Positions 16,138 through 56,221 of a stretch of DNA of 64,000 nt are shown here, in pieces (the first letter of the stretch is position 1; every line of letters begins with the position of its first letter). This stretch comes from Betaproteobacteria bacterium (lineage in GTDB: Bacteria; Pseudomonadota; Gammaproteobacteria; Burkholderiales; JACQAP01), in assembly GCA_016194905.1 (NCBI GenBank), contig JACQAP010000021.1, positions 140,942 to 204,941 of the forward strand, in the 5' to 3' direction. The notes under the pieces are model-generated. The model did not search any database and had not been told where the DNA came from. It was given only the letters and a program-made list of their open reading frames with translations. A program made the position numbers and the translations under genes.

Positions 16138-17031
16138 ATGAGCCTACAGCCATCCGACCAGGCCGAAGGACTGCGGCGCCTGCTCGGCAAGCAGATCCCG
16201 AAAGTGATCACATTGGTCTCCGGCGGCGCGCGCATCGGCAAAACCTGCGCCGCCATCAATCTCGCGGTGGCGATCGCGCAGGCGGGACGCAGCGTGATGC
16301 TACTCGACGAGAACCGCGGTCCGCGCAACGTGACCGCTACTCTCGGCATCGATACCGTGGCCGACATGGCCGATACCGTGCGCGGCGGCCGCGCGCTCGA
16401 GCAGACACTTGTGCCCGGACCGGAGGGGTTGGTCATTCTCCCGGCCGGACGTGGCGTTCAGGCGCTGGCCGGCATTGACGAGGGTGGCCGCGACAGGCTG
16501 GTCGAAGGATTTGCGCGAGTCGGCGGCGCTCTCGATTTCATTCTGGTCGATACCGCAGCGGGCACATCGAGCCGCCTGCTGCCGCTAGCCCATCCCGAGC
16601 AGGAAACCATTCTGATTTCCACCAGCAGCGGAACGGGCCAGGCCAATGCGCTGGGCATGATCAAGCTCATGCATCGCGAGCTTGGCGCGTGCAATTTGCA
16701 TCTGCTGGTTTCGATGACACGCTCGGAAGCCGAAGGCGAGGCGACCTACTACAACCTGGCCAACGTAGCCGATCGGCATCTGGGTGCCGGCCTGGAGTTT
16801 TTCGGCGTCGTTCCTTTAGACGAGCGCATTGCCCAGTCGGGCCATGTCGGACGCGCTGCGGTCGAGATGTTCCCGCACGCGCCCAGTTCCGTGCAATGGC
16901 GGCGGCAGGCGCAGGAAATCATGCAGTGGCCGCTGCCGCGGGAAGCGGCGGAGGGGATGGATCGTTTCGTTCAGCGTCTGATCCTGGGCAGTCGCGTCCA
17001 GGTGGGCACAGTTGCGCTCTCGGCGGCATGA
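16138..17031 (+). CDS. flhG: MinD/ParA-family flagellar number regulator FlhG (FleN) with atypical Walker A
   Basis: Position after flhF. P-loop SGGARIGKT (16219-16245) instead of the deviant Walker A SGKGGVGKT. ATG 16138 has GAGG 8 nt upstream. GTG 16132 is an alternative start. Confidence 0.8.
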   Translation: MSLQPSDQAEGLRRLLGKQIPKVITLVSGGARIGKTCAAINLAVAIAQAGRSVMLLDENRGPRNVTATLGIDTVADMADTVRGGRALEQTLVPGPEGLVILPAGRGVQALAGIDEGGRDRLVEGFARVGGALDFILVDTAAGTSSRLLPLAHPEQETILISTSSGTGQANALGMIKLMHRELGACNLHLLVSMTRSEAEGEATYYNLANVADRHLGAGLEFFGVVPLDERIAQSGHVGRAAVEMFPHAPSSVQWRRQAQEIMQWPLPREAAEGMDRFVQRLILGSRVQVGTVALSAA

Positions 17032-17083: not shown

Positions 17084-17797
17084 ATGTACACAGCAACCGG
17101 AGCGCAAGACAGGCAGGAGTGGATCCAGCAGTACGCCCCGCTGGTGAAGCGTATTGCCCATCACATTATGGCGAAGCTGCCAGCCAGCGTCGAAGTGGAC
17201 GATATCATCCAGGCCGGCATGATGGGCTTGATGGACGCGGTCGGCCGCTACGAAGAGACGCAGGGCGCGCAGTTCGAGACTTACGCCGCACAGCGCATTC
17301 GCGGCGCGATGTTGGACGAGTTGCGCAACTGCGACTGGTTGCCGCGCGGCATCCGCAAGAACATGCGCACGATCGAGAAGGCGATGCATGCGCTCGAGCA
17401 GCGCCTGGGCCGTCAGCCCAGCGAGCACGAAATCGCCAACCAGATGGAGTTGTCGCTACCCGATTACCAGCAGATGCTGCAGGAAGCGCGCGGTCATCAA
17501 CTGGTCTACTACGAGGACTACAGCGAAGGCGACGATGAACACTTTCTCGACCGTCACGCCGGCCACGCACACCAGAGTCCGTTGGAAAATCTGGTCGAGG
17601 AGAGCATGCGCGCGCGCCTGATCGAGGCGATCAAAGACCTGCCCGAACGCGAAAAGATGATGATGGGCCTGTACTACGAGCAGGATCTGAACCTGCGCGA
17701 AATCGGCGAAGTGATGGGCGTCAGCGAATCGCGCGTATGCCAGATCCACACCCAGGCCATTGCGCGGCTGCGATCGATGCTAAGGGAAGAACCATGA
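17084..17797 (+). CDS. fliA: flagellar sigma factor FliA (sigma-28)
   Basis: Sigma-70 family regions 2-4 (DDIIQAGMMGLMDAVGRYE, LNLREIGEVMGVSESRVCQIHTQA). Position after flhFG. ATG 17084 inside the longer ORF. Confidence 0.92.
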   Translation: MYTATGAQDRQEWIQQYAPLVKRIAHHIMAKLPASVEVDDIIQAGMMGLMDAVGRYEETQGAQFETYAAQRIRGAMLDELRNCDWLPRGIRKNMRTIEKAMHALEQRLGRQPSEHEIANQMELSLPDYQQMLQEARGHQLVYYEDYSEGDDEHFLDRHAGHAHQSPLENLVEESMRARLIEAIKDLPEREKMMMGLYYEQDLNLREIGEVMGVSESRVCQIHTQAIARLRSMLREEP

Positions 17798-17885
17798 ACC
17801 ATCGAAAGGCGTAACGCGCTCAATCAGGCGCGATGGATGAAAATTGAATGCCGGTCACGCCGGCATTTTGTTTTCCGGTCACCAG
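17786..17885. repeat. direct repeat copy 1 (last fliA codons + fliA terminator), partner at 28457-28552
   Basis: gaagaaccatgaacc...caatcaggcgcgatggatgaaaat.gaatgccgg...ccggc.ttttgtttt recurs at 28457-28552. By eye the match is about 85-90% identical. Confidence 0.75.
17847..17874 (+). terminator. rho-independent terminator of fliA
   Basis: Stem AATGCCGG / CCGGCATT, loop TCACG, then TTTGTTTT. Confidence 0.7.
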
Positions 17886-18018
17886 CCGACTTGGCTCCGC
17901 GCAGGTCTTTTCTCTCCGAGCAGACAAGAGCCGGTTAATAGGCCCTAATCACCCTTAAGGCGCACGGTCACGGTGCGACGATGTGCGCGGCGCTACGTCG
18001 GTTCGAACGCCGGAAGGC

Positions 18019-18061
18019 AAAGTGCTGCCGCGCATTTAAAAAGTGCTGCTGCGCACTTAAA
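18019..18061. repeat. tandem 21-22 bp repeat, each unit containing a palindrome
   Basis: AAGTGCTGCCGCGCATTTAAA / AAGTGCTGCTGCGCACTTAAAG. The second unit has a perfect AAGTGC-N6-GCACTT. Confidence 0.4.
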
Positions 18062-18317
18062 GAGCGCGCGGGAAGCAAATGCACCAGTAGGGCGTTACCG
18101 CGAATTGCGCGGCGTGCTTCGGCTCGCCAATCTGGTCGAGCGGTTTCGCTGAGTGGGAAAAGGGTGGCAATGTCAGGTAAAAATAGTTTATAAACGATAT
18201 TATTCGATCCGCCAAGTCTCTTCATCGGGAAAACAGTTTGGCACGATGGCAGAGTGGTTATTCAGAGGATTGCTTGTGGGTATTGTCAACTTGCCGCACT
18301 CATGATGTGATGCGGCG

Positions 18318-18500
18318 ATGAATACTTCGCGTAGTGTCCTGCCTGCCGGCCTCTACAAGAGACACGGGTTCCTCGCCGGGATCTGCGGCTATCGCGCTTA
18401 CCTCTATTTCCGGTTCTCCCTCAGCTTCCGTCACATCGGGAAGATGATGGCCAAGCACGGGGCAGTGCTCAGCTATGATACCGTCCGCAATCTGATTTGA
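18318..18500 (+). pseudogene. N-terminal fragment of an IS6-family transposase (relic)
   Basis: The 60-aa ORF YKRHGF...YLYFRFSLSFRHIGKMMAKHGAVLSYDTVRN resembles IS6/IS26-family transposase N-termini, and the DDE domain is missing. A possible IR-like GGCACGATGGCAGA lies at 18239-18252. Confidence 0.5.
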
Positions 18501-18618
18501 ATTGCCTTCGCGCAGTTTTATTCGCTGGGCGGATAAGACGGCGCGAAGCAGCGTTTTTCCTCGCTCATACGAAAACTTCGCGACAGAACCTGCGGGAGAA
18601 CTCGCCGTAATTGAGTGT

Positions 18619-21600
18619 ATGTCACCAGCTTCTCATAATAATAATTCGCGCAATAGCGCTGCAGTACCCCGTCCTCATCCACGCACCGTCGGCTGGTTTG
18701 GTACCACCGCCGTCGCCATGGGCGGCATCAATCAAAGCCTGTTCTTGTTCGGCGCGCTCTTTATCGGCCAGGGGGACACTACCGGTCAGGGTAGCGCGGC
18801 CGTGCCGTTACTGATCGTTGGCCTGCTTCTGAGCTGGGCGGCGATGCCGGCTTGGACGGAACTGATCATGATGTTTCCGAATCGCGTCGGTGGCATCGCG
18901 GCGACCTGCGCAGAAGCGTTTCGGCCCTACAGCCCCGTGCTTGCGAACCTCACGGGCGTCTGCTACTGGTGGGGATGGGTGCCAACCTGCGGCCTGACGG
19001 CGCTGCTGTCGGCATCGGCGATCCATCAGTGGTATCTGCCCGGGTTTCCGGTGTCACTCCTCGCGTCTTGCATCGTGCTGTTATTTACGGCGGTGAATCT
19101 TTGTGGCGTGAAATGGGTCATGCGTTTCGCCATGCCGATTGCCACGGCTTCGGCGAGTCTTGCGTTTCTCTCCGCGGTGGTTCCGATGTTCAGCGGCCAA
19201 GTCGATTGGCAAAGAGCGTTTACATTTCAGCTTACGGTGCCGTTCGAAGGATGGTTCGGCCAGGTCACCAGCGTGATGGCCGGACTGTATCTTATCGGCT
19301 TCGCCGCACCGGCTTTTGAACAGTCCGCCTGTCACGTCGGCGAGACCATCAATCCGAACAGGAACGTGCCGCGGGCGATGTTCGCGAGCGCGAGGCTCGC
19401 GTCCCTCTACTTCATTGTGTTGCCGGTAGTCTGGCTCGGCGCGCTGGGACCGGAACCGCTGGGCAGGGACCTCGCGCTCGAACTCGGACCGACATTTGCG
19501 CCGCTGCTCGGCGGCGCGGCCAAGGCGGCGGCGATCTGGTTCATGATGCTGAACATGTTTCACGGCACGATCGCGCCTCTGGCGGGCGCGGCCCGTACGT
19601 TGTCGCAGCTGGCTGAAGATGGCCTGCTGCCAGAATTCATGGCTAAGCGCTCGCGCACGGATGCGCCATGGGTCACGACGATCATCACCGCGGCCATGGC
19701 GATCGCGTTTCTTCTGATCGGCGACCCGGTGTGGCTGATCGCGGCGGCGAACCTTACTTATCTCATCGGCATCGCCATGCCAAACGTCGCCGTCTGGCTC
19801 CTGCGCCGGAACCATCCGGAGATGGTGCGCCCGTATCGCGCGCCCCGCGGCATGATCACGGTCGGACTGTTCGCGGCCTGCACATGGGCGCTCACTACGG
19901 TGCTCGGATTCCAGCAATTTGGTCTTCCGACGGTGCTGACGGGAGTCGCCTTCGCCTATTCGGGTGCGGTACTCTACGCGTGGCGCAAAATATCCGATCG
20001 CCGAAAGCTGGGTCTGCCACGAATTGCCCGCACGCTTCATTTGAAGCTCACTGGCGCAATGCTGCTAGTGCTGATGCTGGACGCCGTCGGCTATCTGATT
20101 GCGGTGAGCCACGTTCCTGTGCACGACACGGCGCTCATCGCGATGCTGGAAGACGTTTTCGTCGCCGTCGCGCTGCTGACCATCAGCGTCGGCCTGATTC
20201 TGCCAGGAATGATCGCACACTCCGCGGTCGAAGTTTCCAAAGCCGCCGAGCGACTGGTAACGGGCACGCTCGCGGATTTCACGCGGTCGATGCGCGCGCT
20301 GGCTGCGGGGGACCTCGATGCCGCCAAGGCCCGGTTCGAGTTCGTGCCGGTGGTGGCCCATTCGCGGGACGAAGTCGGGGATATGGCGCTGAGTTTTAAC
20401 AAGCTCCAAGAGGAGATCGGGCGTGCCGTTATCGGACTGGAAGGCGCGCGCGAGGGTCTTTCGCGCGCGCGCGAGACCACCGAAGCGAACGAGCGCCTGC
20501 GTTTCGAGCTCGCCGAGCGCCACCGTGCGGAGGAGCAGTCCCGCGAACAGGCCGCGTTGCTCGACAAAGCCACGGACGCGATCCTGGTAGGGGATTTCAA
20601 TGACAAGATTGTCTATTTGAACCCGAGTGCGGAGAACCTTTACGGCTGGAAACTCGCGGAGCTCGCCGGCCTGACGGGCGGCGCACCCATTTACCAGGAT
20701 TCGACAAAATTCGCCGAAGCGAAGAAAGTCGTGCTTGAAAGAGGTGACTGGAGCGGCGATCTGGCGCAGGTCACGCGCGACGGGCGGGATCTGATCGTCG
20801 AGAGTCGCTGGACGTTGCTGCGCGACAACGAGGGTAAACCCAAGGCGATTCTCTTCATCAACACCGATATCGCGGCGCGCAAACAAGCCGAGGAGGCGCT
20901 GGCCGAGATGAACAACCGCTTGCGCGGGCTGTCGCATCGCGCGGGAATGGCCGAGGTTGCAACGAGCGTCTTGCACAACGTCGGCAACGTCCTCAACAGC
21001 GTCAATGTCAGCTCCTCCTGCGTGGCCGATGCTCTAAGAAAGTCCAAGAGCGCCAACTTGTCCAAAGTCGTCGCGTTGTTGCGTCGGCACGAGACCGACT
21101 TGGGCGCCTTCCTGACTACCGACGCTAAAGGCATGCAGGTCTTAGGCTATCTCGGGCAACTATCCGAGCATCTGGCCGACGAACAGGCCGCCGTGCTCGA
21201 AGAGCTTGCCCAATTGCAAAAACACATCGAGCACATCAAGGAGGTTGTGGCGATGCAGCAAAGTGATGCGCAGATTTCCGGCGTCAAGGAAATCGTCAAC
21301 ATCAACGGCTTGGTGGAAGACAGCCTACACATGAATGTCGGCGTTTTAAGTCGCAACGGGGTCGAGGTCATCCGTGAATTTGAAAACGTACCGCCGATAA
21401 ACGTCGACAAGCACAAGGTCGTGCAAATCCTGGTGAACCTGGTGCGTAACGCCAATTATGCTTGCGACGAATCCGGGCGCGCAAACAAACGGCTGACCAT
21501 TCGAGTGGGCAACGGTGATGGCCGAATCAAGATATCCGTGATCGACAATGGCGTGGGAATTCCACGGGAAAATCTGAGCCGCATTTTCAGTCACGGTTTT

Positions 21601-21759
21601 ACCACCCGGAAAGGCGGTCACGGTTTCGGCCTTCACAGCGGCGCGCTGGCCGCGAAGGAAATAGGTGGTTCGTTGACCGTTCACAGCGACGGCCTTGGCC
21701 AAGGCGCCACGTTCACACTTGAGTTGCCATACGAGAGGAAGGAAATCTCACATGAATAA
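18619..21759 (+). CDS. APC-family amino-acid permease fused to HAMP-PAS-histidine kinase (transporter-sensor fusion)
   Basis: About 480 aa of permease-like TM helices, then two TM helices, a HAMP-like linker (DEVGDMALSFNKLQEEI) and PAS. H-box-like SVLHNVGNVLNS. HATPase motifs DNGVGIP and GHGFGLH. ATG 18619 preferred over TTG 18502. Confidence 0.8.
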   Translation: MSPASHNNNSRNSAAVPRPHPRTVGWFGTTAVAMGGINQSLFLFGALFIGQGDTTGQGSAAVPLLIVGLLLSWAAMPAWTELIMMFPNRVGGIAATCAEAFRPYSPVLANLTGVCYWWGWVPTCGLTALLSASAIHQWYLPGFPVSLLASCIVLLFTAVNLCGVKWVMRFAMPIATASASLAFLSAVVPMFSGQVDWQRAFTFQLTVPFEGWFGQVTSVMAGLYLIGFAAPAFEQSACHVGETINPNRNVPRAMFASARLASLYFIVLPVVWLGALGPEPLGRDLALELGPTFAPLLGGAAKAAAIWFMMLNMFHGTIAPLAGAARTLSQLAEDGLLPEFMAKRSRTDAPWVTTIITAAMAIAFLLIGDPVWLIAAANLTYLIGIAMPNVAVWLLRRNHPEMVRPYRAPRGMITVGLFAACTWALTTVLGFQQFGLPTVLTGVAFAYSGAVLYAWRKISDRRKLGLPRIARTLHLKLTGAMLLVLMLDAVGYLIAVSHVPVHDTALIAMLEDVFVAVALLTISVGLILPGMIAHSAVEVSKAAERLVTGTLADFTRSMRALAAGDLDAAKARFEFVPVVAHSRDEVGDMALSFNKLQEEIGRAVIGLEGAREGLSRARETTEANERLRFELAERHRAEEQSREQAALLDKATDAILVGDFNDKIVYLNPSAENLYGWKLAELAGLTGGAPIYQDSTKFAEAKKVVLERGDWSGDLAQVTRDGRDLIVESRWTLLRDNEGKPKAILFINTDIAARKQAEEALAEMNNRLRGLSHRAGMAEVATSVLHNVGNVLNSVNVSSSCVADALRKSKSANLSKVVALLRRHETDLGAFLTTDAKGMQVLGYLGQLSEHLADEQAAVLEELAQLQKHIEHIKEVVAMQQSDAQISGVKEIVNINGLVEDSLHMNVGVLSRNGVEVIREFENVPPINVDKHKVVQILVNLVRNANYACDESGRANKRLTIRVGNGDGRIKISVIDNGVGIPRENLSRIFSHGFTTRKGGHGFGLHSGALAAKEIGGSLTVHSDGLGQGATFTLELPYERKEISHE

Positions 21760-23485
21760 TTTGAATGCGGACCAACACCGGCGCGTTCTGGTCATCGACG
21801 ATAGTCGTTCCATCCACGATGATTTTCGCAAGATTCTTTCCCCCGGTAAAACCACACGCCCTGCATTGGACGCCGTCGAGACGGCGCTTTTTGAGATTCC
21901 AACGAACACGGATAGGCAAATCCAATGCGAGGTCGACTCGGCCTTCCAGGGACGGGAGGGAGTGACGCTGGTGAAAAATGCCCTTCAGCAGGGGCGTCCT
22001 TACGCGATGGCTTTTGTTGACGTGCGCATGCCACCCGGCTGGGATGGCGTAGAAACGACACATGAAATCTGGAACATCGATCCCAACATCCAGATCGTGA
22101 TATGCACCGCCTATTCCGATTATTCGTGGAACGAGATGGTGGCGAAGCTCGGCCACTCGGACCGGATGATCATTCTGAAGAAGCCGTTTGATATCATCGA
22201 AGTGCTGCAACTGGCCACGGCGCTGACCGAAAAGTGGCGGCTGCTCTGGCAGGCCCGGTCAACGATGCAAGATTTGGAGAGAAGGATCGCCCGGCGCACA
22301 AGCGAATTGAGCCTGACCAACCACAAGCTTGAGACGGAGGTGGTCGAACACAAACTGGCGGAGACCAAGGTGCTCGAGTCCCGGCGTTGGTTCCACACCG
22401 TTTTTCAGGAAAGTCCGATACCCATATTCGTGATACGTGTTGTGGACGGCCGCATCCGCGATGTGAACAAATCGGCACTGGCGCTCTACGGTTACCGGGA
22501 CGAAGAGATGGTCGGATATCAGATGGCCGAGCTCGACCTCTGGGAGGATCGGGAGAAATTCACGGAGATCCTCACAATCCTGAAAGAGGACCGCCGTATA
22601 CTGAATCACGAGTGTCAACAACGGAACCGGGCGGGCCAGTCGCTCGACGTGCTGATTTCCTGTGAGACCGAGGTCATGGGGGGCGAGAAAGTGTACATCG
22701 CGCAAGTAGTCAATATCACCGACCGCAAGCGGGCCGAAACCCGGGTGCGCCAGCTCAACAGGGAGCTGGAGCGGCGCGTCGAGCGGCGTACCGCGGAATT
22801 GCGGGAAACGGTGGCCGAACTCGATTCATTCACCTACAGCGTCGCCCACGACCTGCGCGCGCCGCTGCGCCGGTTGCAGGGTTACTTGCACATGATAACT
22901 GCTGAATATGGCGACGGCCTCAGTGCCAAGGGCCGCCACTTTCTGCAGCGGATCGCCATGAACGCGGTGGACATGGGGGCATTGATGGATGGACTGCTCA
23001 AGTTAGCCCACTTGGGCCGGCGCGAGGTCGATCGCCAGCCTGTCAACATGACCGAGTTGATGCGGGAAAGCGTTGCGGCGGCGCAGGGCGAGGCGTCGAC
23101 TAACCTGCGCTTCGTGGTCGGCGAACTGCCGACCGTGACCGGCGATCCGGTCTTACTGAAACAGGTCTGGAACAATCTGATCGATAACGCCGTCAAATTT
23201 AGCCAGCATGCCGTGCAACCAACGATCACTATCGACTGGAAGCGGGAGAACGGCTGGGTTTGGTTCTCCGTGGCCGATAACGGAGTGGGTTTCGATAGCG
23301 CTTACGCGGACAAGCTGTTCGGGGTATTCCAACGCTTGCATAATCGGTCGCAGTTCGACGGAACGGGGGTCGGACTTTCCATCGTGCGGCGTATTGCATA
23401 CAAGCATGGCGGAACGGTTTGGGCGGAAAGCCGGCTCAGCGAAGGCGCCTGTATCTATTTTTTCCTCCCGGATGCGGGGATCTGA
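21752..23485 (+). CDS. REC-PAS-histidine kinase hybrid
   Basis: ATG 21752 overlaps the upstream gene by 8 nt. Receiver (VLVIDD, AFVDVRMPPGWDG), PAS, H-box FTYSVAHDLRAPLR. HATPase motifs DNGVGFD and GTGVGLS. Confidence 0.85.
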   Translation: MNNLNADQHRRVLVIDDSRSIHDDFRKILSPGKTTRPALDAVETALFEIPTNTDRQIQCEVDSAFQGREGVTLVKNALQQGRPYAMAFVDVRMPPGWDGVETTHEIWNIDPNIQIVICTAYSDYSWNEMVAKLGHSDRMIILKKPFDIIEVLQLATALTEKWRLLWQARSTMQDLERRIARRTSELSLTNHKLETEVVEHKLAETKVLESRRWFHTVFQESPIPIFVIRVVDGRIRDVNKSALALYGYRDEEMVGYQMAELDLWEDREKFTEILTILKEDRRILNHECQQRNRAGQSLDVLISCETEVMGGEKVYIAQVVNITDRKRAETRVRQLNRELERRVERRTAELRETVAELDSFTYSVAHDLRAPLRRLQGYLHMITAEYGDGLSAKGRHFLQRIAMNAVDMGALMDGLLKLAHLGRREVDRQPVNMTELMRESVAAAQGEASTNLRFVVGELPTVTGDPVLLKQVWNNLIDNAVKFSQHAVQPTITIDWKRENGWVWFSVADNGVGFDSAYADKLFGVFQRLHNRSQFDGTGVGLSIVRRIAYKHGGTVWAESRLSEGACIYFFLPDAGI

Positions 23486-23703
23486 CACCGGTTATCGCGA
23501 TCCGCACAGCGGTTTCAATGGTATTGGCAAGGTCCCTGCCCGCCTGATTACGAATTCGCCATGAACAGGCCCAGCGGCTACTGAACGATATAGCATTGAC
23601 GCGGTCATATGAGTCATGGTCCGGAGTTTTGGATCAGGAGCTCGTCGGTCCCTCCCTTCCGATGGGCTCCTTTTTCTACCATTCACCGCGGCCAGTACTT
23701 CTC

Positions 23704-25641
23704 TTAACCCAGTTCCAACTGAGATAACGCTTCTTCGTCGCCGTCATCGCCGGCCGGCGCAATTCCCTTCTTGCGGACCCATTGAGCAAACGCTTCCACG
23801 GGCAGTGGCGGGCTAAAAACGTACCCCTGAATGATGTCGCAGCCGTATTGACGGAGGAAGTTCTTCTGCTCGATGGTTTCGGCTCCTTCCGCCACGACTG
23901 CCAGTCCCAGCGCGTGAGCCAGCACGATGATAGCCTGGGTGATGGCGGCGTCTTCTTTGTCCTGTGGAAGACCGCGTATGAACGTGCGATCGATTTTGAG
24001 CGTGTCAATTGGAAAGCGCTTCAGGTAGCCCATGAATGAGTAACCCGTCCCGAAGTCGTCGATCGACAGTTTCACTCCGATTGAGAAGAGCTCGTTCAGA
24101 ACGCGGATGTGCGATTCGACATTCTCCATCAGTATGCTTTCCGTCAGTTCGAGCTCGAGCCGATCGGGTGGCAAGCCGCTCTCGCGCAAACTGGAGAGCA
24201 CCCGTTTCAGCAGGTGATTGTCCTCGAACTGGCGCGCCGAGAGGTTGACCGATACAGTCAGAGCGCCCAATCCCTGCTGTTCCCAGACCATCGCCTGGTG
24301 GCACGCCTCGCGCAGCACCCACTCGCCGATGGAGATGATGAGATTGCTTTCTTCCGCAATCGGTATGAATTCCGCAGGGCTCACCTTACCCAACTCTGGA
24401 TTCTCCCAGCGCAGCAGCGCTTCGGCGCCGACAACGCGGTTTTGCTGGACGTTCACCTTGGGCTGAAAGCTAAGCCGGAACTCCCCATTCTGCAACGCTT
24501 TGCGCAAGCTATTCTCGATGTTAAGACGCCGCATCGTGCTCTGGTTCATCTCCTCTTTGAAGACCTGAAAACAGTTCCGGCCCGCGTCCTTGGCGTGGTA
24601 CATCGCCGTGTCGGCATTGCGGACAAGGCTGGGCGCATCGCTGGCGTGATCCGGATAAAAGGCGATTCCACAGCTGACCGTGGAATAGACCTCACGCGAT
24701 TCGATGACGTACGGCTTGCCGAGCTTGTCGACCAGCGCTTTTGCCACCAAGTTGGCTGCCTGCTTGTCCGCGGGATTCTCCAGGATCACGGCAAACTCGT
24801 CACCGCCCAATCGGCAGACCGCGTCGGCGCGCCGCAGGACCTTGGTCAGTCGCTCGCCTACCGAGTGCAGCAGCGCGTCTCCGGCTTGGTGGCCCTGGCT
24901 GTCGTTGACCGACTTGAAGTTGTCCAAATCGAGTAACAGTAAGCCGACGCTGCTATGAAAACGTTTTGCGCGCGCGAGGGCGAAGTCCAGGCGCTCGTTG
25001 AAGGTGTGCCGGTTGAGCAGATTGGTGACTGGATCGTAATGGGCCAAGTAGGTGAGCTGTTCCTCTGCCCGCCGGACGGCGGTGCGCAGGCCCGATATCA
25101 GCAAGTAGGCGACGCCCATCGCCAGCAAGCCGGTCACTGCCGTTGTGCCAATGAATCCCGCGAGACGAGAGTAGACCAGCCGCAAGCTGCCGCGGACCTG
25201 CACTGACCCAAGCTCCCCTTCGCTGTATTGGACGGGATGCACTACATCGATGTGGTCCAGCGAGAAGTGCTCTTGACCCGTGAGCGGATGCGTGGAAGCG
25301 TGGCCAGCAGAGGGCTGGCGCTGGTACACCGCGAACGGCTGCTCCCGGTTGTCGTAGATAATCGCGTCGATGACCGTCGGCGATGCACGCAGGGCGGATA
25401 GGATCTCGGTTGCGTTCTTACGGTCTCCAAAGGCAAGCGCTGCCTGAGCGTTGTCTCCGACGATTTGGGCTTGTGCTTGAAGATCGTCGTGCAGCGATAT
25501 CCTGAGCGACCGCATCTCGAAAAACGTGAGGACCGCACCCGCGATCACCAGAGCAATTGCCACCGCGATGAGATTGATCGCATCGGAACGCTGACTTACC
25601 CCCAGCCTGGCTAGGACCAGATCGAGTTTTTGGATCATCAT
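23704..25641 (-). CDS. membrane sensor GGDEF-EAL protein (YfiN-like periplasmic sensor module)
   Basis: TM, ~150-aa extracytoplasmic region, TM. Intact I-site RRAD and GGDEF (RLGGDEF). Intact EAL (EALLRW, DDFGTGYSF, KIDRTF). Confidence 0.85.
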   Translation of the reverse strand: MMIQKLDLVLARLGVSQRSDAINLIAVAIALVIAGAVLTFFEMRSLRISLHDDLQAQAQIVGDNAQAALAFGDRKNATEILSALRASPTVIDAIIYDNREQPFAVYQRQPSAGHASTHPLTGQEHFSLDHIDVVHPVQYSEGELGSVQVRGSLRLVYSRLAGFIGTTAVTGLLAMGVAYLLISGLRTAVRRAEEQLTYLAHYDPVTNLLNRHTFNERLDFALARAKRFHSSVGLLLLDLDNFKSVNDSQGHQAGDALLHSVGERLTKVLRRADAVCRLGGDEFAVILENPADKQAANLVAKALVDKLGKPYVIESREVYSTVSCGIAFYPDHASDAPSLVRNADTAMYHAKDAGRNCFQVFKEEMNQSTMRRLNIENSLRKALQNGEFRLSFQPKVNVQQNRVVGAEALLRWENPELGKVSPAEFIPIAEESNLIISIGEWVLREACHQAMVWEQQGLGALTVSVNLSARQFEDNHLLKRVLSSLRESGLPPDRLELELTESILMENVESHIRVLNELFSIGVKLSIDDFGTGYSFMGYLKRFPIDTLKIDRTFIRGLPQDKEDAAITQAIIVLAHALGLAVVAEGAETIEQKNFLRQYGCDIIQGYVFSPPLPVEAFAQWVRKKGIAPAGDDGDEEALSQLELG

Positions 25642-26183
25642 TTTCCGAGGACCGATCGTGACAGCCTCAGGAGCTTGGAGCTGATGGATAGACTCTGCCG
25701 GCTTGCCGCGTGTGGGTTGATATCGAACACCATTTTCTGATTGGCCACGTCCAGCCCGATAATCATGCCATCGCGCGCCGCCCCTTCCGCATCGGAGATG
25801 GTGAGGACGGATTTTCCCTGGAGGGTGACCGCAATCCCGGCCAGACGACGCTTCTCCGAACTGGACACGAACAACAGGTCGCAGGTATCGGGGAGACCCG
25901 GTCCCTTGAGCCGCCGTATTCCGATCTTCCTGCCACGTATGGTCTTGTGCTCGAGCGCAGCGATGCTGGCGCCCAATGCGTCCTCTCCCGTCAAGCAGAT
26001 ATAGAAGAGCGGATCACTTCTGTGTTCGCTCTCTTGAGGCCATTCCACGAACAGGGCGAAGTTGTAGATGAGCGCCACCTTAAGAGCGTCTTCGGGGGCC
26101 ACTTGCGAGCGAGCAGGGCCGGACGCCGAAATCATCAGCGCAATCACGATCCCCAGCAGCAGCGGTTCCCAAGCGCGCGTCAT
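25638..26183 (-). CDS. YfiR-family (DUF4154-like) periplasmic protein
   Basis: Signal peptide. Motifs VALIYNFALFVEWP and SISSKLLRLS are typical of YfiR-like proteins. Stop overlaps the downstream start (ATGA). Confidence 0.65.
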   Translation of the reverse strand: MTRAWEPLLLGIVIALMISASGPARSQVAPEDALKVALIYNFALFVEWPQESEHRSDPLFYICLTGEDALGASIAALEHKTIRGRKIGIRRLKGPGLPDTCDLLFVSSSEKRRLAGIAVTLQGKSVLTISDAEGAARDGMIIGLDVANQKMVFDINPHAASRQSLSISSKLLRLSRSVLGK

Positions 26184-26188
26184 GGCGG

Positions 26189-28279
26189 CTAAAACCGATA
26201 GCTAGCCGACAGTCGATAGATGCGACCATCCTGCACGATGACGTTCTGCACGTGCTCCTCGGACGCCGGGTCGGCGTACGCCTTGTCGAAGAGGTTGTAC
26301 ACGCTGGCCGAGACTACTAACCCCGGAGCGAGCTTTCGAGTCAGGAGCGTGGCGTTGAATATCGCATACGCGCCGGTGTTTTCGCCGCGCAGCGTGCGCC
26401 GATTGCTGACGTACTGCGATTCCAATCCGAGCTGGAAGAAATCCCGCCACAGCGGGGTCATGAAGTTCAGTTTGGCCAGAAGACTGGGAGAGTTTGTCAT
26501 ACGCTCCGCCGTTTCGCTTCCCTCGGAATCGACTGCGCGTTGCCACGTCAAGCTGGCCCTTAGCTTGGCCTCGCTGGCCCAGATCTTCTCCGCTTCGAAC
26601 TCGATGCCATTGACCCTGACGTGCTCGAGGTTGATGAATACGAGGAGGCCATCGACGGGATCAGTCGTCAGGCTGATGAGGTTTCTGATGTCGTAGTGGA
26701 AAGCCGACCCGGTCAGCCGGAAACCTCCGGGCAGCCGTTCCTCGGCGACGAACTCATAGGTCGCGATGGTTTCCGGCTCCAGATTGGGATTGGTCTTGAA
26801 GCCCGAAGTGGTCGTTGTCCCGTAGTAGAGTTCGTAGGCGTTGGGAGCACGGAAGGCCGTGCCATAGAGCAATTTGAGCGAGGTCGTGTCCCGTGGCTTG
26901 AAAATGGCGGCCAGGCGCGGATTGACGGAGTCCAGGCCGGTCGAGTAGTAGTCGTAGCGCAGTCCGGCATTGAAGAGCAGCTTCTGCGCAACGCTGATCT
27001 CGTCCTGAGCATAGACCCCATAGCGATAGTCGTGGTGATGATTGTCCAGATAAACCACACGGGGGCTGTCGTCGAAGTTCATTTGTGTCTGCTCGAGATC
27101 CTGCTGGTATTCGACGCCGGTTACCAGGCGGTGTCCGTTGAGCGGACTGCTCGTGAGTTTGATCTCGCCATCCCACCAGCGGCCCCTGACGCGATCCTGG
27201 TTTACAGTGACCGGCGGATAGTCGAGTACGTAGTCGCCACGATAGTGCCAGTCCGTATAGCTCGCGCGCGCGGAGAGCTCAGTACTTGACCAGGCGGTGT
27301 CGTAGGCCAGGCTAAGGGAGTTGCGCCCGTCCACCGTCTGGCTGCGCGGGTCGTTGAAGAGTTGTCCGAAGGAACCGGTGGGGATACCCTTCGTGCGCTC
27401 GTGATGGAGGACCCCGAAGCTCAAGCCCGAAGCGCTGAACTTGCCCAGGAAGAACTGCGCCCGCTCGTAATCGAGACCCTGGGCTACGCCATTGTTGGTG
27501 GCGGGTGAGTTGAACTCCGGGAAGAACAGGTCGCGGCCTTCGCTGTTCAGACCGGAGGCGGACAGCAGCAGTTCGTGGTCGCCGCCCCACTGGCGGCCGT
27601 AGGTCGCTCGTCCGCTCACGGTCTCGGCGCTGGCGACTTCGCCCTTGATCTCGGTCGCGGCGTAGTCATGGCCGTGCTTGGTGACGACGTTGATGACGCC
27701 GAGAAAGGCGTTGCTGCCATACATCGAGGAGCCCGGCCCGGGGATGAACTCGACGCGGTCAATGAGATCCACGTCGATGGGAAACTCGTAGCCGATGACC
27801 GCCTGGTCGAAGACGTTGTCGTTGATACGGTAGCCGTCCAGGAGCAGCAGAACTCGCGTGTTGTAGTCGCCGGGTCGGGAGAAGCCGCGCACGCCTAGAT
27901 AGCTGTAATTGCGATCATTGGACACATACAGGCCACGGATGCTCTTCAGGACGTCCGCGAGCGAGCGGTAGCCGTAGGCTTCGATCTCGCTGGCCGTGAT
28001 CACGGTCACGGCCGAGGGCGCATCCGAGGCCTTTTGCAGGAACTTGGACGCTGCATAGACCTGCACATCCAGGAGCTGTTCCAGAGGCAGTTCAACGAGC
28101 TTATCGGCGGACTGCGCCTCTGAAACTGGACCGGCCGCCAGGGTAACGCCGTTCCACAGTGCGAATGCCACGAGAGCGCTGACAAACTTCGACAGGTGCC
28201 GTGCGCACGCAGCCCCTGCCTGGCGCAGGGATTGAGGGCGGGACGCTAGGAAATCGGGCTGTTTCCGACGCTGAGTCAT
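26189..28279 (-). CDS. TonB-dependent outer-membrane receptor
   Basis: 696 aa. Plug-domain motifs (APSAVTVITASEIE, IRGLYVS...YLGVRGF). Beta-barrel-like repeats. C-terminal aromatic ...YRLSASYRF. Confidence 0.85.
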   Translation of the reverse strand: MTQRRKQPDFLASRPQSLRQAGAACARHLSKFVSALVAFALWNGVTLAAGPVSEAQSADKLVELPLEQLLDVQVYAASKFLQKASDAPSAVTVITASEIEAYGYRSLADVLKSIRGLYVSNDRNYSYLGVRGFSRPGDYNTRVLLLLDGYRINDNVFDQAVIGYEFPIDVDLIDRVEFIPGPGSSMYGSNAFLGVINVVTKHGHDYAATEIKGEVASAETVSGRATYGRQWGGDHELLLSASGLNSEGRDLFFPEFNSPATNNGVAQGLDYERAQFFLGKFSASGLSFGVLHHERTKGIPTGSFGQLFNDPRSQTVDGRNSLSLAYDTAWSSTELSARASYTDWHYRGDYVLDYPPVTVNQDRVRGRWWDGEIKLTSSPLNGHRLVTGVEYQQDLEQTQMNFDDSPRVVYLDNHHHDYRYGVYAQDEISVAQKLLFNAGLRYDYYSTGLDSVNPRLAAIFKPRDTTSLKLLYGTAFRAPNAYELYYGTTTTSGFKTNPNLEPETIATYEFVAEERLPGGFRLTGSAFHYDIRNLISLTTDPVDGLLVFINLEHVRVNGIEFEAEKIWASEAKLRASLTWQRAVDSEGSETAERMTNSPSLLAKLNFMTPLWRDFFQLGLESQYVSNRRTLRGENTGAYAIFNATLLTRKLAPGLVVSASVYNLFDKAYADPASEEHVQNVIVQDGRIYRLSASYRF

Positions 28280-28456
28280 TTGCCAGGGGTACGTGTTCGT
28301 GTTCGGGATATCGGAAACACTACGGATTTATCGGCAGACAGCCGGTCGTTCTTGAGAGGTTAAGCAGGGGAGCGGCTACCCGGTTCCGGTGTATCCGCGG
28401 ACAGGCATAGACTGGGTGGCTGGTGATGGAGAGCCAGAGCCAAGTCGCTGCTGCGC

Positions 28457-28552
28457 GAAGAACCATGAACTATGGAAAGGCGTGATGCCTCAATCAGGCG
28501 CGATGGATGAAAATCGAATGCCGGCCATGCCGGCTTTTGTTTTGCGACCAGG
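28457..28552. repeat. direct repeat copy 2: relic of a fliA 3' end plus orphan terminator
   Basis: Matches 17786-17885. The upstream frame reads ...ARAKSLLREEP* (stop 28466-28468) versus fliA ...ARLRSMLREEP*. Hairpin GCCGG-CCATG-CCGGC plus TTTTGTTTT with no plus-strand gene ending upstream of it. Confidence 0.75.
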
Positions 28553-28778
28553 AATTGAAAAGCGCTAGTGCGGAGGATTCCTTTCAATATTCAGTGAGCG
28601 TCCTCGACGGGTAATCGAGGGGGGTGGCAGGGTACTACTGAGGTGATGGTTTGCAATGTGGTCCAAGACGGTCTAGATTGAATCGCCATGCAGATTGCAT
28701 TGACCCGAAAATATCAGGCGTCCGAAGTGACGCAAAATAAAGTGTCTTTTAGGAGTTCTGCTTTACGTTAGGCCGACC

Positions 28779-29228
28779 ATGACTGAGAAAACGGAAGAAG
28801 AGAAGTTCTTGGAGGCCCACCAAAAGGAACGGGATGTTCTATTCTCAAACGAATCCTTCGTTATCGGCGTTCTTCAAGCAGTTTCTGGCGGCTCACTGTT
28901 TGCTGCCTTAGCGCAGTCAGAAACTCTCCTCAAGCTTGCGGGAAAGCTACCATTTCTTACCTTTCTCACATTGATGGGTATCAGTCTGATATCGGCCGTA
29001 TTCGCCGCGTACTGGAAACATCAATACAAGATGTGGGACGTCAAAGCACGTGTGAGTGGGGCAGGCGGCAATTCAGCAGAGATGAAAATACGCTCGGAAT
29101 CTTCCAGTACACATTTGGTCGCAATGCGCCAAGCTATGTTTGTTGCCGTGATTGTGTTCGTGTTTGGCCTAGGTAACCTTTTGTTTTTTGCGTGGGCTCG
29201 GGCCTTGTGTCCTGCTGTCTCAGCCTAA
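28779..29228 (+). CDS. small membrane protein (3 predicted TM helices), unknown family
   Basis: 149 aa. Hydrophobic stretches FVIGVLQAVSGGSLFAALA, LPFLTFLTLMGISLISAVFAAYW and AMFVAVIVFVFGLGNLLFFAWA. Charged N-terminus. Weak RBS. Confidence 0.5.
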   Translation: MTEKTEEEKFLEAHQKERDVLFSNESFVIGVLQAVSGGSLFAALAQSETLLKLAGKLPFLTFLTLMGISLISAVFAAYWKHQYKMWDVKARVSGAGGNSAEMKIRSESSSTHLVAMRQAMFVAVIVFVFGLGNLLFFAWARALCPAVSA

Positions 29229-29304
29229 CTTTGGGTCGAGCGGACCGTCCGCACGGTCCGCCCCTCACCAAGGTGTTATCCGTTCCATTACCGGTGCAAT
29301 CACC

Positions 29305-30936
29305 ATGCCGCTAAGCGATCCATCGATCAAGAAGCTGACGAATCTGATCAAGGACAGCTTTCGCGTTCGCCGGAACCAGCGCCCTCTATATGTTGACCTT
29401 GGTGGAAGCCTTGAGCGCATTGCTGCGGCCCAACACCAGGTAATTTTCGGCCGCCGTGGATCGGGGAAGTCCTGCCTCCTCGTGCACTACCTAAATACTA
29501 CGGCGGACAGCCGTATCCTCCCGATCTACGTTCTCGCTGACGAGTTCAAGAAGCTCACCTATCCGGACATCCTGATCCGGCTACTCGTTGAAATACTTGA
29601 ATCAATGCCAGTGCGCTGGGCTGTATTCAAAAAACTCCTTCGGAGACCAGCGCCGACTCGCGTCGCGGCCGAAGAACTTCGTAAGCTGTTGGACGTTGCC
29701 GACGAGTCAGAGGTAATAGAAGATCGGCAGCACCGCACAGCAGACACAGCCGGTGTCAACGTAAGCGCCCAAGGTGTGGGGCAGGCTGCGATTGGGTCCA
29801 CAACAGATCAAGCTCAAACGCGCTCCTCCAGGTTCAAGGAGCGGAAAATCGACACCTTGGAAAGACATTTGAGAGACTACAAGAACGCCATCATCAGCGC
29901 CGTGAAGACATCAAGGGCAGAGAGAGGCTGTGTCCTGATTGACGATTTCTATCTCATTTCTAGAGAATGGCAGGCCGACGTTTTCGACTATATCCATCGG
30001 TTGTTGCGTGACAGCGACGTCTACCTCAAGGTTGCGACGATCCGCCACCGCACGACGCTGCTCCGGAACCGACCGCAGACAGTCGGCGTTGAGTTGGGCC
30101 AGGATGTAGAGGAGATCAATCTTGACCGAACCCTGGAGGACCTGGAGGCGACAGAACAGTACCTCCTTCAGATGCTCAGAACGATGGGCGAGCGCGTCGG
30201 AGTGACAGACCTCATGGCCTACTTTAACCCGGACGCGCTTCAGGCTCTAACGCTCGCCTCGGGTGGTGTTCCACGCGACTTCCTGAATATCTTCGTCAAC
30301 GCCGTAGAAGTTGGAGTGCCAGAGGAGCGAGCAAAGTGGCTGACTCCCAGAAACATATACAAGGGAGCCGGCCGCTTGGCGTACCAGACCAAGCTCAAGA
30401 ATCTGCGTGATGACGCAGGTTTAGACGCCGCGGGTCTTGACCGTGTTCTGGTTGATCTATTGACGTTTTGCCTCAAGGAGAAGCGCAAGACGGCATTCTT
30501 GATCTCGCAGGACGAGGCCCAGCAGCATCCTGGAGAACACCGTCTTATTCAGCAGTTGATGGACTTCAAGCTAATCCATGTCGTCGAACCCGACACCTCT
30601 GCGGCATCGGGTCGTAGCGGCCGCTATGAAGCGTACACGTTGGACTTTTCTTTGTTCATGGAACCACGACGGAGAAGCATCGAGATAATAGAGTTCTGGC
30701 GGAGAGGAGAAGATAGTCATCGCGTTGGCATCCGAGAAGCACCCGTCTATGGGCTGGATCGTGTTGCGCGCGTGTTTGAGGAGGCATCAACTGGTACGAG
30801 CCCCGAAGCCTTCTTGGACGAGCCCGACGTAGAGACAGGCGCCAAGGAGCAGCCCCAAGCTCGTAGTGCACGCGAACTGGAGCGAGGTGTTCAGGGGAAC
30901 CTCTTTGATAGAGTGAACGGTCGGGGAGATCGGTAA
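29305..30936 (+). CDS. orphan P-loop NTPase (AAA+/Orc1-Cdc6-like features) with winged-helix-like C-terminal region
   Basis: Walker A GRRGSGKS (29449-29472). Walker B CVLIDDF (29929-29946). Lid-like GGVPRDFLNIF. C-terminal HTH-like segment (HRLIQQLMDFKLIHVVE...RYEAYTLDF). I could name no family. Confidence 0.7.
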   Translation: MPLSDPSIKKLTNLIKDSFRVRRNQRPLYVDLGGSLERIAAAQHQVIFGRRGSGKSCLLVHYLNTTADSRILPIYVLADEFKKLTYPDILIRLLVEILESMPVRWAVFKKLLRRPAPTRVAAEELRKLLDVADESEVIEDRQHRTADTAGVNVSAQGVGQAAIGSTTDQAQTRSSRFKERKIDTLERHLRDYKNAIISAVKTSRAERGCVLIDDFYLISREWQADVFDYIHRLLRDSDVYLKVATIRHRTTLLRNRPQTVGVELGQDVEEINLDRTLEDLEATEQYLLQMLRTMGERVGVTDLMAYFNPDALQALTLASGGVPRDFLNIFVNAVEVGVPEERAKWLTPRNIYKGAGRLAYQTKLKNLRDDAGLDAAGLDRVLVDLLTFCLKEKRKTAFLISQDEAQQHPGEHRLIQQLMDFKLIHVVEPDTSAASGRSGRYEAYTLDFSLFMEPRRRSIEIIEFWRRGEDSHRVGIREAPVYGLDRVARVFEEASTGTSPEAFLDEPDVETGAKEQPQARSARELERGVQGNLFDRVNGRGDR

Positions 30937-31003
30937 CAAAATAGTCTGAGGACATGGGTTACACTTTCGGGGTCGCAACCCGGCTGCCGCAGGATCGATC
31001 CGA

Positions 31004-31642
31004 ATGTATCTGCCTTCCCACTTCGAAGAAACCCGCGCCGAAGTTTTGCACGAACTGATCCGCAGCCATCCGCTGGGTGCGCTGGTTACGTTCGGCTCCG
31101 ATGGGCTGAACGCAAACCATGTTCCCTTTGAGATCGACCCCGCGCCCGCGCCGTTCGGTACATTGCGCGCTCACGTAGCGCGGGCGAATCCGGTGTGGCG
31201 CGAGTTCTCGAAGGAAGTCGAATCGCTGGTGATTTTTCAGGGGCCGCAAATCTACATCACGCCGTCCTGGTACCAGACCAAAAGGGAAACCGGGAAAGTG
31301 GTGCCGACTTTCAACTACATCGTGGTGCATGCCTACGGCGCCATGCGTGTCATCGAGGACGCCGACTGGTTGCGCAAGTTTGTCGGTGGATTGACCGCTC
31401 GTTTCGAGGCGGCCCGTGCACAGCCGTGGGCTATCAGCGATGCGCCGGAGGAATTCGTCGCCATGCAGTTGCGTGCAATCGTCGGGATCGAAATTGCCGT
31501 TACCCGGCTGGTCGGAAAATGGAAGACCAGCCAGAATCGGCCGGCGGCGGATCAACAAGGCGTCGTGGCGGGATTGCGCGAATCGGACGATGCGGTTGCG
31601 CAGGCGATGGCTGACGCGGTCGAACGCAACTGGAAGGCCTAG
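31004..31642 (+). CDS. PaiB-family FMN-binding putative transcriptional regulator
   Basis: MYLPSHFEETR...HVPFEID...GTLRAHVARANPVWR...ITPSWYQTK...VPTFNYIVVHAYG matches the PaiB family pattern. Confidence 0.75.
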   Translation: MYLPSHFEETRAEVLHELIRSHPLGALVTFGSDGLNANHVPFEIDPAPAPFGTLRAHVARANPVWREFSKEVESLVIFQGPQIYITPSWYQTKRETGKVVPTFNYIVVHAYGAMRVIEDADWLRKFVGGLTARFEAARAQPWAISDAPEEFVAMQLRAIVGIEIAVTRLVGKWKTSQNRPAADQQGVVAGLRESDDAVAQAMADAVERNWKA

Positions 31643-32625: not shown

Positions 32626-32652
32626 TTATCGGCATTTCCCCTGGGGACTTTA
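32626..32652 (-). promoter_or_regulatory. sigma-28 promoter of flgMN
   Basis: Minus strand reads TAAAGTCC-N11-GCCGATAA, a near-consensus match. The -10 lies about 37 nt upstream of the flgM ATG. Confidence 0.65.
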
Positions 32653-32720
32653 GGCCGCGAACCGCTATTTTATCCACCTGTCGGTCCTGTTATCGGCACC
32701 CGCCCACGAGTCCTTGAGCC

Positions 32721-36353: not shown

Positions 36354-36463
36354 GAGGGACGAGGGACTGGAGAACAGGGACTAGGGGCTAGGGACTAGAG
36401 GGACCTACACCCTTCACTTATTCATTCCTTCACTGTTCACCGTTCACTCTTCACTGATTTCAC
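36354..36463. repeat. intergenic double heptamer array (GGGAC-type units, then TTCAC-type units)
   Basis: GAGGGAC GAGGGAC TGGAGAAC AGGGAC TAGGGGC TAGGGAC TAGAGGGAC, then CTTCACT TATTCAT TCCTTCAC TGTTCAC CGTTCAC TCTTCAC TGATTTCAC. The array ends at the flgF ATG. Confidence 0.8.
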
Positions 36464-44116: not shown

Positions 44117-44893
44117 TCACTTCTGAAGTATTTCCAGTGCCGCAGATGCGCCGGAGGTCAGCAGTTTCTCCATCGGCACCGTCAGGTAGGGCAGCACCAG
44201 CGCCAGCATGAAAAATCCCAGCAGCAACGTGATCGGAAACCCGACTGCGAAAATATTGAGTTGAGGTGCGGTGCGCGTCAGCACGCCTAATGCGAGGTTG
44301 GTAATGAGCAGCGCCGCGACGACCGGCAATGCCAGTGTCAGCCCGGCTGCGAACATTTGACCGCCCCAGGACACCAGACTGAACGCAGCATGTGCGCCGA
44401 ACAGATCGGTGCCGATCGGCAGCATGGCAAAACTTTGTGCGAGCGTGGAGATCATCAGCAGGTGCCCATTCAGCGCCAGGAAGAACAGCACCGCCAGCAG
44501 GCTCATGAGCTCTGCAATTACGGGCGCGTTGTTTCCGTGCTGCGGATCGAAGAATGTCGCGAATCCCAGGCCCATCTGCAATCCGATCAGTTCGCCCGCC
44601 GTATCGACTGCCGCGAACGCGATACGCATCGCCAGACCCATCGCCGTGCCAATGACGATCTGCTGGATCAACACCAGCAGGCCTTCGTATGAGGATGGCG
44701 ATACGTCGGGAATGGGGCCGGCGAGCGGCGCGATCACGAGCGTCAGAGCCAATCCGAGACCGAGCCGAATGCGCCGCGGTACACCGCGATTGCCAAACAC
44801 CGGCGCCGTCGAGACCAGCGCGAGGATCCGCGCCATCGGGAATGCGAAGGAGGCGAGAAAGGCGGCTAGTTGGGTGGAAGTGAGGGAGAGCAT
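44117..44893 (-). CDS. fliR: flagellar export gate protein FliR
   Basis: 258-aa polytopic membrane protein of FliR type (FLASFAFPMARILALVSTAPVFG). Confidence 0.9.
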   Translation of the reverse strand: MLSLTSTQLAAFLASFAFPMARILALVSTAPVFGNRGVPRRIRLGLGLALTLVIAPLAGPIPDVSPSSYEGLLVLIQQIVIGTAMGLAMRIAFAAVDTAGELIGLQMGLGFATFFDPQHGNNAPVIAELMSLLAVLFFLALNGHLLMISTLAQSFAMLPIGTDLFGAHAAFSLVSWGGQMFAAGLTLALPVVAALLITNLALGVLTRTAPQLNIFAVGFPITLLLGFFMLALVLPYLTVPMEKLLTSGASAALEILQK

Positions 44894-44896
44894 GAT

Positions 44897-45024
44897 GGGA
44901 TAGGGGCTAGGGATCAGGGGCTAGGGGCTGGAAGAAAAGCGCTGACAAATTATGTTAAGGCAGTAAAGGCCTGAAGACGTGTTCCCCTAGCACCTAGTCC
45001 CTCACCCCTAGCCCCTAGCCCCTG
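44897..45024. repeat. intergenic inverted heptamer-array element (GGGGCTA units) inside the fliQ-fliR junction
   Basis: Left arm TAGGGGC TAGGGAT CAGGGGC TAGGGGC. 53-nt core. Right arm CCCCTAG CACCTAG TCCCTCA CCCCTAG CCCCTAG CCCCTG. Confidence 0.85.
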
Positions 45025-45028
45025 TCTT

Positions 45029-48605: not shown

Positions 48606-48693
48606 GACACGCCCTCAGTGTGGGATGCAGCCATTATTCAGGCCGGGGGTCTCGATCCATCGCTGGAATAGAGCGGCAAAAAATACCTAATTC

Positions 48694-56097: not shown

Positions 56098-56098
56098 T

Positions 56099-56216: not shown

Positions 56217-56221
56217 ATCTT

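Follow-up and report, generated by a model that had tools for sequence, protein, structure and literature searches.

Which of two copies of the end of a gene is the original one, and by what route did 10.6 kb of DNA come to lie between them? These questions are raised by a 64-kb stretch of contig JACQAP010000021.1 (64,000 nucleotides, hereafter the window) from an uncultured soil Burkholderiales bacterium, in which the flagellar sigma factor gene fliA is followed by a block of signalling and transport genes that is bracketed by a direct repeat of the fliA 3' end and terminator. An earlier note on this DNA had read the arrangement as the duplication of a target 3' end by DNA that entered the end of fliA, and this reading is supported by the empty sites found in related loci and by the polarity of the two repeat copies. 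Insertion and polarity are highly probable; for the whole explanation, including recombination from a related lineage as the route of entry, we estimate a probability of roughly 0.5.

The repeat pair and the displaced end of fliA

The two copies of the repeat (copy A, adjoining fliA, and copy B, at the far side of the block; Table 1) pair up in a formal alignment at positions 17774-17882 and 28445-28551, and the match in copy B begins at 28444 once the relatives serve as a guide. The copies are 10,670-10,671 bp apart from start to start, differ by two 1-nt indels and are 84-87% identical, depending on the columns counted. Their local alignment score was 76, compared with a mean of 9.6, a standard deviation of 1.6 and a maximum of 18 in 500 shuffles of one partner of the pair, and the direct repeat of the fliA 3' end and terminator is thus real. 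The coordinates first assigned to it (17786-17885 and 28457-28552) located the repeat but set its left edge about 12 nt short. The repeat is about 105 nt long and consists of the last eight fliA codons with the stop, a 48-nt spacer, a GC-rich hairpin and a T-tract, the last 24 nt of fliA falling within copy A. The longest exact run common to both copies (26 nt, CTCAATCAGGCGCGATGGATGAAAAT) is in the middle of the repeat. Both copies were called as intrinsic terminators by the terminator scan, with a stem of 10 pairs in copy A and 6 pairs in copy B, and the terminator of copy B is an orphan, as had been proposed: no plus-strand gene end was found upstream of it.

Both copies keep the reading frame for eight codons and the stop (S[M/L]LREEP-stop). 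Of the longer frame reported for copy B in the earlier note (ARAKSLLREEP), the part S-L-L-R-E-E-P-stop stands and the preceding residues do not. The four codons before this part share only 3 of 12 bases with fliA, so that the extra 'AR' match is probably coincidental and not homologous; the 11-residue tblastn match of the copy B frame had an E-value of 3.1.

The order of the copies was determined by comparison with related loci (referred to below by L numbers). The window is collinear with L157 from 28444 to 28640 (L157 1966-2161; 82.9% identity over 199 columns), and the aligned segment of L157 begins exactly 25 nt before the end of its fliA and enters the downstream spacer. The same collinearity of copy B and its right flank was found with L004, L150 and L006. 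Copy A is collinear with the relatives from within fliA up to the T-tract (approximately 17874-17882), where the homology is lost. The similarity of copy B to fliA starts abruptly at 28444, and positions 28409-28443 have no similarity to fliA. The layout thus comprises, from left to right, fliA, copy A, cargo (17883-28443), copy B and native spacer. Since the native fliA end and spacer of the relatives align collinearly with copy B, this copy is very probably the displaced original, and copy A would have arrived together with the cargo.

The fliA gene itself is intact. Its start is the ATG at 17084; the TTG at 17012, which gives the longest open reading frame (ORF), was rejected; the exact look-up of its product had no match, and the exact FliA protein is present on the Logan contig L001. 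FliA is 88-93% identical to the FliA proteins of relatives, and none closer than 93% was present in the collection searched. The nearest loci by nucleotide sequence were L149 and L157/L158, in which fliA is about 90-91% identical over its whole length.

Empty sites, which the earlier note had proposed to look for, were found: fliA is followed directly by paiB in L002, L004, L157 and L158, and directly by flgN-flgM-flgA in L006, L151 and L008. The empty state was recorded in eight related loci and six distinct lineages, as the pairs L006/L151 and L157/L158 each seem to be a single lineage sampled twice. The remaining loci have other contents in this gap, namely one short-chain dehydrogenase gene (L007), 4.6 kb with a receiver protein, an Excalibur protein and two glutathione S-transferases (L005), 2.2 kb with small ORFs and a hemerythrin (L150/L156), or a convergent HDOD gene (L149). 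None of the relatives carries the 10.6-kb block, contrary to what would be found if the block were ancestral. Given the empty sites, the block reads as an insertion, specific to this lineage as judged from its distribution. The earlier statement that the block splits fliA from the flg genes is correct in part; paiB is ancestral at this position in several relatives, and the separation is also due to an unrelated insertion of 2.3 kb to the right of copy B (see below).

At least six distinct states of the fliA-paiB gap were found among the relatives examined, with other cargo in L005 and L007, which marks the gap as a hot spot of variation within this uncultured clade of Burkholderiales. The breakpoints vary, being directly after the stop codon in L149 and about 125 nt downstream in L150/L156. 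None of the relatives with other cargo has a duplicated fliA end, the best internal alignment scores being 14-30, as compared with 76 in the window.

Further observations were made in these loci. In L149 (10705-11611) homology to the window does not extend beyond the fliA stop codon; the convergent HDOD-domain gene has taken the place of the conserved spacer and terminator, and the contig continues for only 900 nt. The 3' boundary of fliA has been rearranged independently in this case too. In L157 (3151-5757) and L158 (3223-5829) flgM was called at just 59 amino acids (aa), and the genes after it encode a LuxR-type response regulator and a HisKA_3 kinase in place of flgA, so the flg side has also been rearranged in that lineage. 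Two clusters of apparently truncated FliA proteins were considered as further insertions into fliA and discarded: P0040 (L150) is due to a frameshift, its near-identical twin L156 being intact, and for P0041 (L151) a start-site or frameshift call is the probable cause.

Routes of entry

In the ancestral arrangement, fliA and its terminator would have been followed by a spacer of about 240-410 nt and then by paiB and flgN-flgM-flgA. DNA of 10.67 kb, made up of a foreign copy A and 10.56 kb of cargo, would have entered at the extreme 3' end of fliA, such that copy A would now complete and terminate fliA and copy B would have been displaced beyond the cargo, where it persists as 25 nt of gene remnant plus an orphan terminator, the native spacer still being attached to it. 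The donor would have been a related bacterium whose fliA was already followed by this cargo. On the left side a homologous crossover would have taken place in or upstream of fliA, and on the right side a non-homologous end would have been joined illegitimately 24-25 nt before the stop codon of the recipient; homology-facilitated illegitimate recombination of this type would duplicate the stretch between the join and the end of the homology. We favour such recombination from a related lineage over an integrase as the origin of the block, at about even odds for this particular route, and it covers every feature of the locus without extra assumptions.

Several features bear on this route. The identity between copies A and B is 84.4%, that between copy B and L157 82-83% and that between copy A and L157 80-81%. 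Polarisation of the differences between A and B with outgroups gave 7 versus 4 derived changes and then 7 versus 6 (7 in copy A and 6 in copy B with respect to L157), a balanced result that by itself is uninformative as to which copy is older. The copies are about as different as orthologues of sister lineages and their changes are balanced, which fits copies that, more probably, differed before they came together. Some 85 nt of copy A are non-coding spacer and terminator with orthologues throughout the clade, as would be the case in a chromosomal fliA end from a relative. The rough equidistance of A, B and L157, together with the host-like GC content at third codon positions (GC3) of the cargo, favours import from a related lineage. 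As regards the two sides of the event, the anchor on the side of homology is an intact and orthologous fliA (90-91% of nucleotides identical to L149 and L157), and at the joint there is an abrupt non-homologous boundary at 28444.

Other results weigh against this route. A donor contig with fliA or copy A followed by the cargo was not found, apart from the same organism, in the GTDB genomes, the JGI metagenomes and a collection of 5.8 billion proteins, although absence from these is weak evidence. The nearest homologues of the cargo are just 53-77% identical and occur in other contexts. A clear mosaic breakpoint for the left crossover was not seen in flhA-fliA, where the sole signal was a dip relative to L149 within fleN (16365-16965). 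Any microhomology at the illegitimate join is visible only with donor sequence beyond 28443, homologous recombination across a divergence of about 10-15% is inefficient, and the truncated IS6 element shows a deletion beside copy A, which is where the integrase of an island would be expected. In the fleN tract the identity to L149 drops from about 90% to 82-84%, no better than that to L150 or L006, and the tract may be an old recombination tract.

The deletion makes it conceivable that the block was an integrase-type island that used an attachment site resembling the fliA 3' end and lost its integrase in the event that truncated IS6. We consider this origin possible though distinctly less probable than recombination with a relative. 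Direct repeats of the target gene 3' end flank the cargo, the functional copy has synonymous differences, relatives have empty sites, and the anatomy is that of icd/icdC around the element e14 (PMC13626634). Furthermore, the 26-nt exact stretch shared by the copies, in the middle of the repeat, could contain a crossover core, although the 5' boundary has no exact core, where later decay is conceivable, and a deletion scar (the IS6 relic, with residues 3-59) is located 470 nt from copy A. However, the scanned ORFs contain neither an integrase or excisionase nor any other mobility gene or remnant, and the homology extends to both sides of any core, about 85 nt beyond the stop codon, more than an attachment site requires. 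The core sequence had no match in IMG/VR. The cargo has a host-like composition and consists of ordinary signalling genes. Other relatives with different cargo have different breakpoints and no repeats, which argues against a single integrase site.

Duplication in situ, in which a stretch of about 105 nt would have been doubled at insertion (by a staggered break or replicative repair) and the copies would have drifted to about 85% identity, is the weakest of the three models and improbable, even though the identity between copies A and B (84.4%) slightly exceeds that of either copy with L157 (80-83%) and nothing in the sequence forbids an old event: the copies have diverged like orthologues of lineages whose fliA differs by 9%, so that the event would date back almost to that split, with a functionless relic persisting throughout; derived changes are as numerous in copy A, which is under selection, as in the neutral relic B (7 versus 6); and bacterial insertion mechanisms are not known to make target duplications of about 100 nt.

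Very little probability remains for an artefact, that is, a metagenome chimera joined via shared sequence or a repetitive extragenic palindromic (REP)-type repeat unrelated to fliA: the organism is uncultured and known solely through metagenome assembly, and Logan contigs of the run SRR12113410 that contain both junctions at 100% identity may stem from the same reads, but a k-mer chimera would yield one hybrid repeat and not two copies flanking the cargo, the junction of cargo and copy B (28443|28444) falls outside every shared exact stretch, and the repeat is orthologous to DNA downstream of fliA in five related lineages. Of these two contigs, which possibly represent one and the same sample as the window, L001 (junction A) covers flhA-fliA-copy A-IS6 relic-kinases and L082 (junction B) covers flgH...paiB-ATPase-copy B-TonB receptor-YfiR-GGDEF/EAL. 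Only two copies of the repeat are present in the window, and a search of the 155 fetched loci for the hairpin pattern gave matches in L001 and L082 alone, at the same two sites of the same organism, so that the dispersed REP-type element considered in the earlier note was not found. The 26-nt core likewise had no match in the IMG/VR search.

Cargo and flanking insertions

The cargo consists of the five signalling and transport genes and the insertion sequence (IS) relic reported earlier, the latter belonging to the IS6 family (Table 1).

Table 1. Positions of fliA, the repeat copies, the cargo and the adjoining DNA in the window.
Feature	Position	Strand	Basis or remarks
fliA, sigma-28, 237 aa, intact	17084..17797	+	Pfam Sigma70 r2/r3/r4
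Repeat copy A	17774..17882	+	Hairpin 17846-17868; collinear with L157 up to 17874
Cargo left end, ~470 nt, non-coding	17883..18353	.	No Pfam/NCBIfam match for ORFs
IS6-family transposase relic	18354..18524	+	NCBIfam transpos_IS6, E = 1.2e-4, profile 2-46 of 202
Amino-acid-permease/HAMP/PAS/histidine-kinase fusion, 1013 aa	18718..21759	+	Pfam; gene call on L001
Receiver/PAS/HisKA/HATPase hybrid kinase, 577 aa	21752..23485	+	Pfam; gene call on L001
CHASE8/GGDEF/EAL protein	23704..25641	-	Pfam CHASE8 1.6e-20, GGDEF 7.7e-50, EAL 1.1e-73
YfiR/HmsC-like periplasmic protein (DUF4154)	25638..26183	-	Pfam 3.2e-38
TonB-dependent receptor, first gene of the minus-strand operon	26189..28279	-	Pfam Plug and beta-barrel
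Sigma-28-type promoter candidate, TCAAG-N15-GCCGATAA	28328..28355	-	Exact pattern match, inside cargo
Repeat copy B	28444..28551	+	Hairpin 28520-28534; very probably relic of native fliA 3' end
Native fliA-paiB intergenic DNA	28552..28640	+	Aligns downstream of fliA terminators of L004, L150, L006, L157
Second independent insertion, ~2.3 kb	28641..30910	+	Bounds by L004, L150, L157 alignments
Native intergenic remainder and paiB	30911..31642	+	paiB 31004-31642, Pfam FMN_bind_2

The non-coding left end of the cargo contains a pair of 21-nt tandem repeats (18019-18061, detected by TRF, Tandem Repeats Finder) and was unmatched in relatives and plasmids by blastn. The IS6 relic keeps residues 3-59 of about 232, its DDE domain being deleted, and its DNA matches IS6 genes of Rhodococcus. 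An IS6/IS26-type (pseudo-)compound transposon was considered as the vehicle of the cargo and rejected, as there is a single truncated relic about 470 nt inside the left end and the flanking repeat of about 105 nt compares with an expected target duplication of 8 bp; neither a second IS6 end nor inverted repeats were found at the right end of the cargo (alignment scores 12-17). In agreement with the earlier statement that no integrase is present, Pfam and NCBIfam scans of the main ORFs found no recombinase, and the ORFs scanned between the repeats contained no integrase, excisionase, relaxase or recognisable remnants of these. The tRNA and Rfam scans found no tRNA in the window and no Rfam family in the region, and plasmid searches with the cargo returned only domain-level matches to IS6 and EAL. 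The GC3 of the cargo is 0.725-0.78, as compared with 0.72-0.80 in the flanking core flagellar genes.

In the 5.8-billion-protein collection the permease-kinase fusion has its nearest homologues at 77% and 74% identity, both in unrelated housekeeping contexts; a comparable kinase pair is present in L152. The hybrid kinase at 22817-23391 (HisKA/HATPase region) shows 70-74% nucleotide identity to a kinase at the left edge of the window (488-1065), a likeness that probably reflects a paralogue or plain domain conservation. For the TonB-dependent receptor the best homologue in JGI metagenomes is 53% identical, and receptor homologues were found within about 4 kb of a GGDEF-EAL homologue at no fewer than (that is, at least) 13 metagenomic loci. 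The YfiR-like protein scored 107 bits with the NCBIfam model YfiR_like_TOL0243, under the cut-off of 125, and the product of 23704-25641 is, as predicted from its domains, a YfiN/DgcN-like sensor with an added EAL domain.

The promoter candidate was found using the sigma-28 pattern TAAAG/TCAAG-N14-15-GCCGATAA and is located 49 nt upstream of the ATG of the TonB-receptor gene. The only other matches in the window are in the flgM promoter region (32690-32717, with an N14 variant at 32626-32652), and the pattern occurred in 0 of 100 shuffles. A similar motif was present in 2 of 34 distant homologue loci, the homologues there being at most 53% identical. The operon of TonB receptor, YfiR-like protein and CHASE8-GGDEF-EAL protein is thus a credible candidate target of FliA, and the description of the cargo as non-flagellar does not hold for this one operon, which has a consensus (FliA-type) promoter candidate.

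To the right of copy B, the second insertion encodes a 149-aa membrane protein (28779-29228) and a 543-aa P-loop ATPase (29305-30936), the last codons and stop of which extend into native-like sequence. Its GC content is 0.49-0.56 and its composition is foreign, as the GC3 of its genes is 0.51 and 0.63. The ATPase had only weak Sll1717-family and ORC/CDC6-like matches, and PADLOC returned one sub-threshold match for the two genes (mad8, E = 9e-4); the insertion may be a small defence-type islet. From 30911 onward the spacer aligns to L004 (4310-4420), L150 (13041-13144) and L157 (2344-2409). L150 (10840-13040), and likewise L156, has 2.2 kb of other cargo at practically the same place in the spacer (window 28593-30910), and the right boundary of that cargo coincides with that of the second insertion at window position 30910. 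This shared boundary suggests a hot spot of cassette exchange.

Elsewhere in the window, dispersed GGGGCTAGGG-type repeats in direct and inverted orientation are present between flagellar genes (36357-36401, 44887-45041, 48689-48732 and 56097-56227). They resemble an intergenic element of the REP type and have no relation to the fliA repeat.

Significance and comparison with known systems

The locus is a polarised case of the entry of accessory genes at a conserved operon boundary without a visible mobility gene, in which the old fliA end persists as a datable footprint. A wider and speculative idea, which we regard as rather unlikely, is that the gap behind fliA serves as a recombinase-free site of cassette exchange in a soil Burkholderiales clade, with one-sided swaps anchored in the flagellar genes and some modules pre-wired to the flagellar regulon, as would be the case here for the sigma-28-driven module of cyclic di-GMP (c-di-GMP) signalling; in that case the orphan end of fliA would be the trace by which the mechanism is revealed. 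If transcribed by FliA, the module of YfiR, CHASE8-GGDEF-EAL protein and TonB receptor would tie c-di-GMP turnover to the late flagellar regulon. In E. coli, pdeH (yhjH) is under FliA control and couples c-di-GMP turnover with the flagellar regulon.

The known system closest in gene content to this operon is YfiBNR (TpbB/DgcN/HmsCDE), with which it shares a YfiR-like protein adjoining a CHASE8-GGDEF membrane protein. Here the OmpA-like lipoprotein YfiB is replaced by a TonB-dependent receptor as the outer-membrane partner, the cyclase has an EAL domain, and the operon has a sigma-28-type promoter candidate. A full YfiBNR module was therefore rejected, YfiB being absent and the third gene encoding the TonB-dependent receptor.

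Islands that target tRNA or tmRNA genes likewise carry the target's 3' end as a direct repeat on either side and have empty sites in relatives, whereas the target here is a protein gene with its terminator, and there is neither a tRNA in the window nor an integrase.

A protein gene is the target of e14/phage 21 in icd of E. coli K-12, where the element restores the gene with its own 3' end and the pseudogene icdC is displaced (PMC13626634). The icd and icdC versions differ mostly by conservative or synonymous changes (PMC13626634; Hill et al. 1989 cited there). The incoming DNA at fliA similarly brings its own 3' end, the gene is intact and the original end is displaced. In contrast, e14 encodes an integrase and an excisionase and excises on SOS induction, whereas a recombinase was not found here, the repeat here runs through the non-coding spacer and the terminator, and the cargo consists of host-like signalling genes instead of phage genes.

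Experiments have demonstrated homology-facilitated illegitimate recombination (PMC3240628), and it has been proposed for the orphan 3' ends and immunity genes of type VI secretion system (T6SS), Rhs and contact-dependent inhibition (CDI) loci (PMC5361080). Those loci differ in that they are toxin/immunity arrays under diversifying selection, often with several stacked orphans, while at the sigma factor gene a single event is seen and the donor was not found. They share with the fliA locus a conserved upstream anchor, new downstream DNA and the old 3' piece kept as an orphan (PMC5361080). The event at fliA is a new instance of a familiar type of rearrangement; its value is modest, and the current understanding stands.

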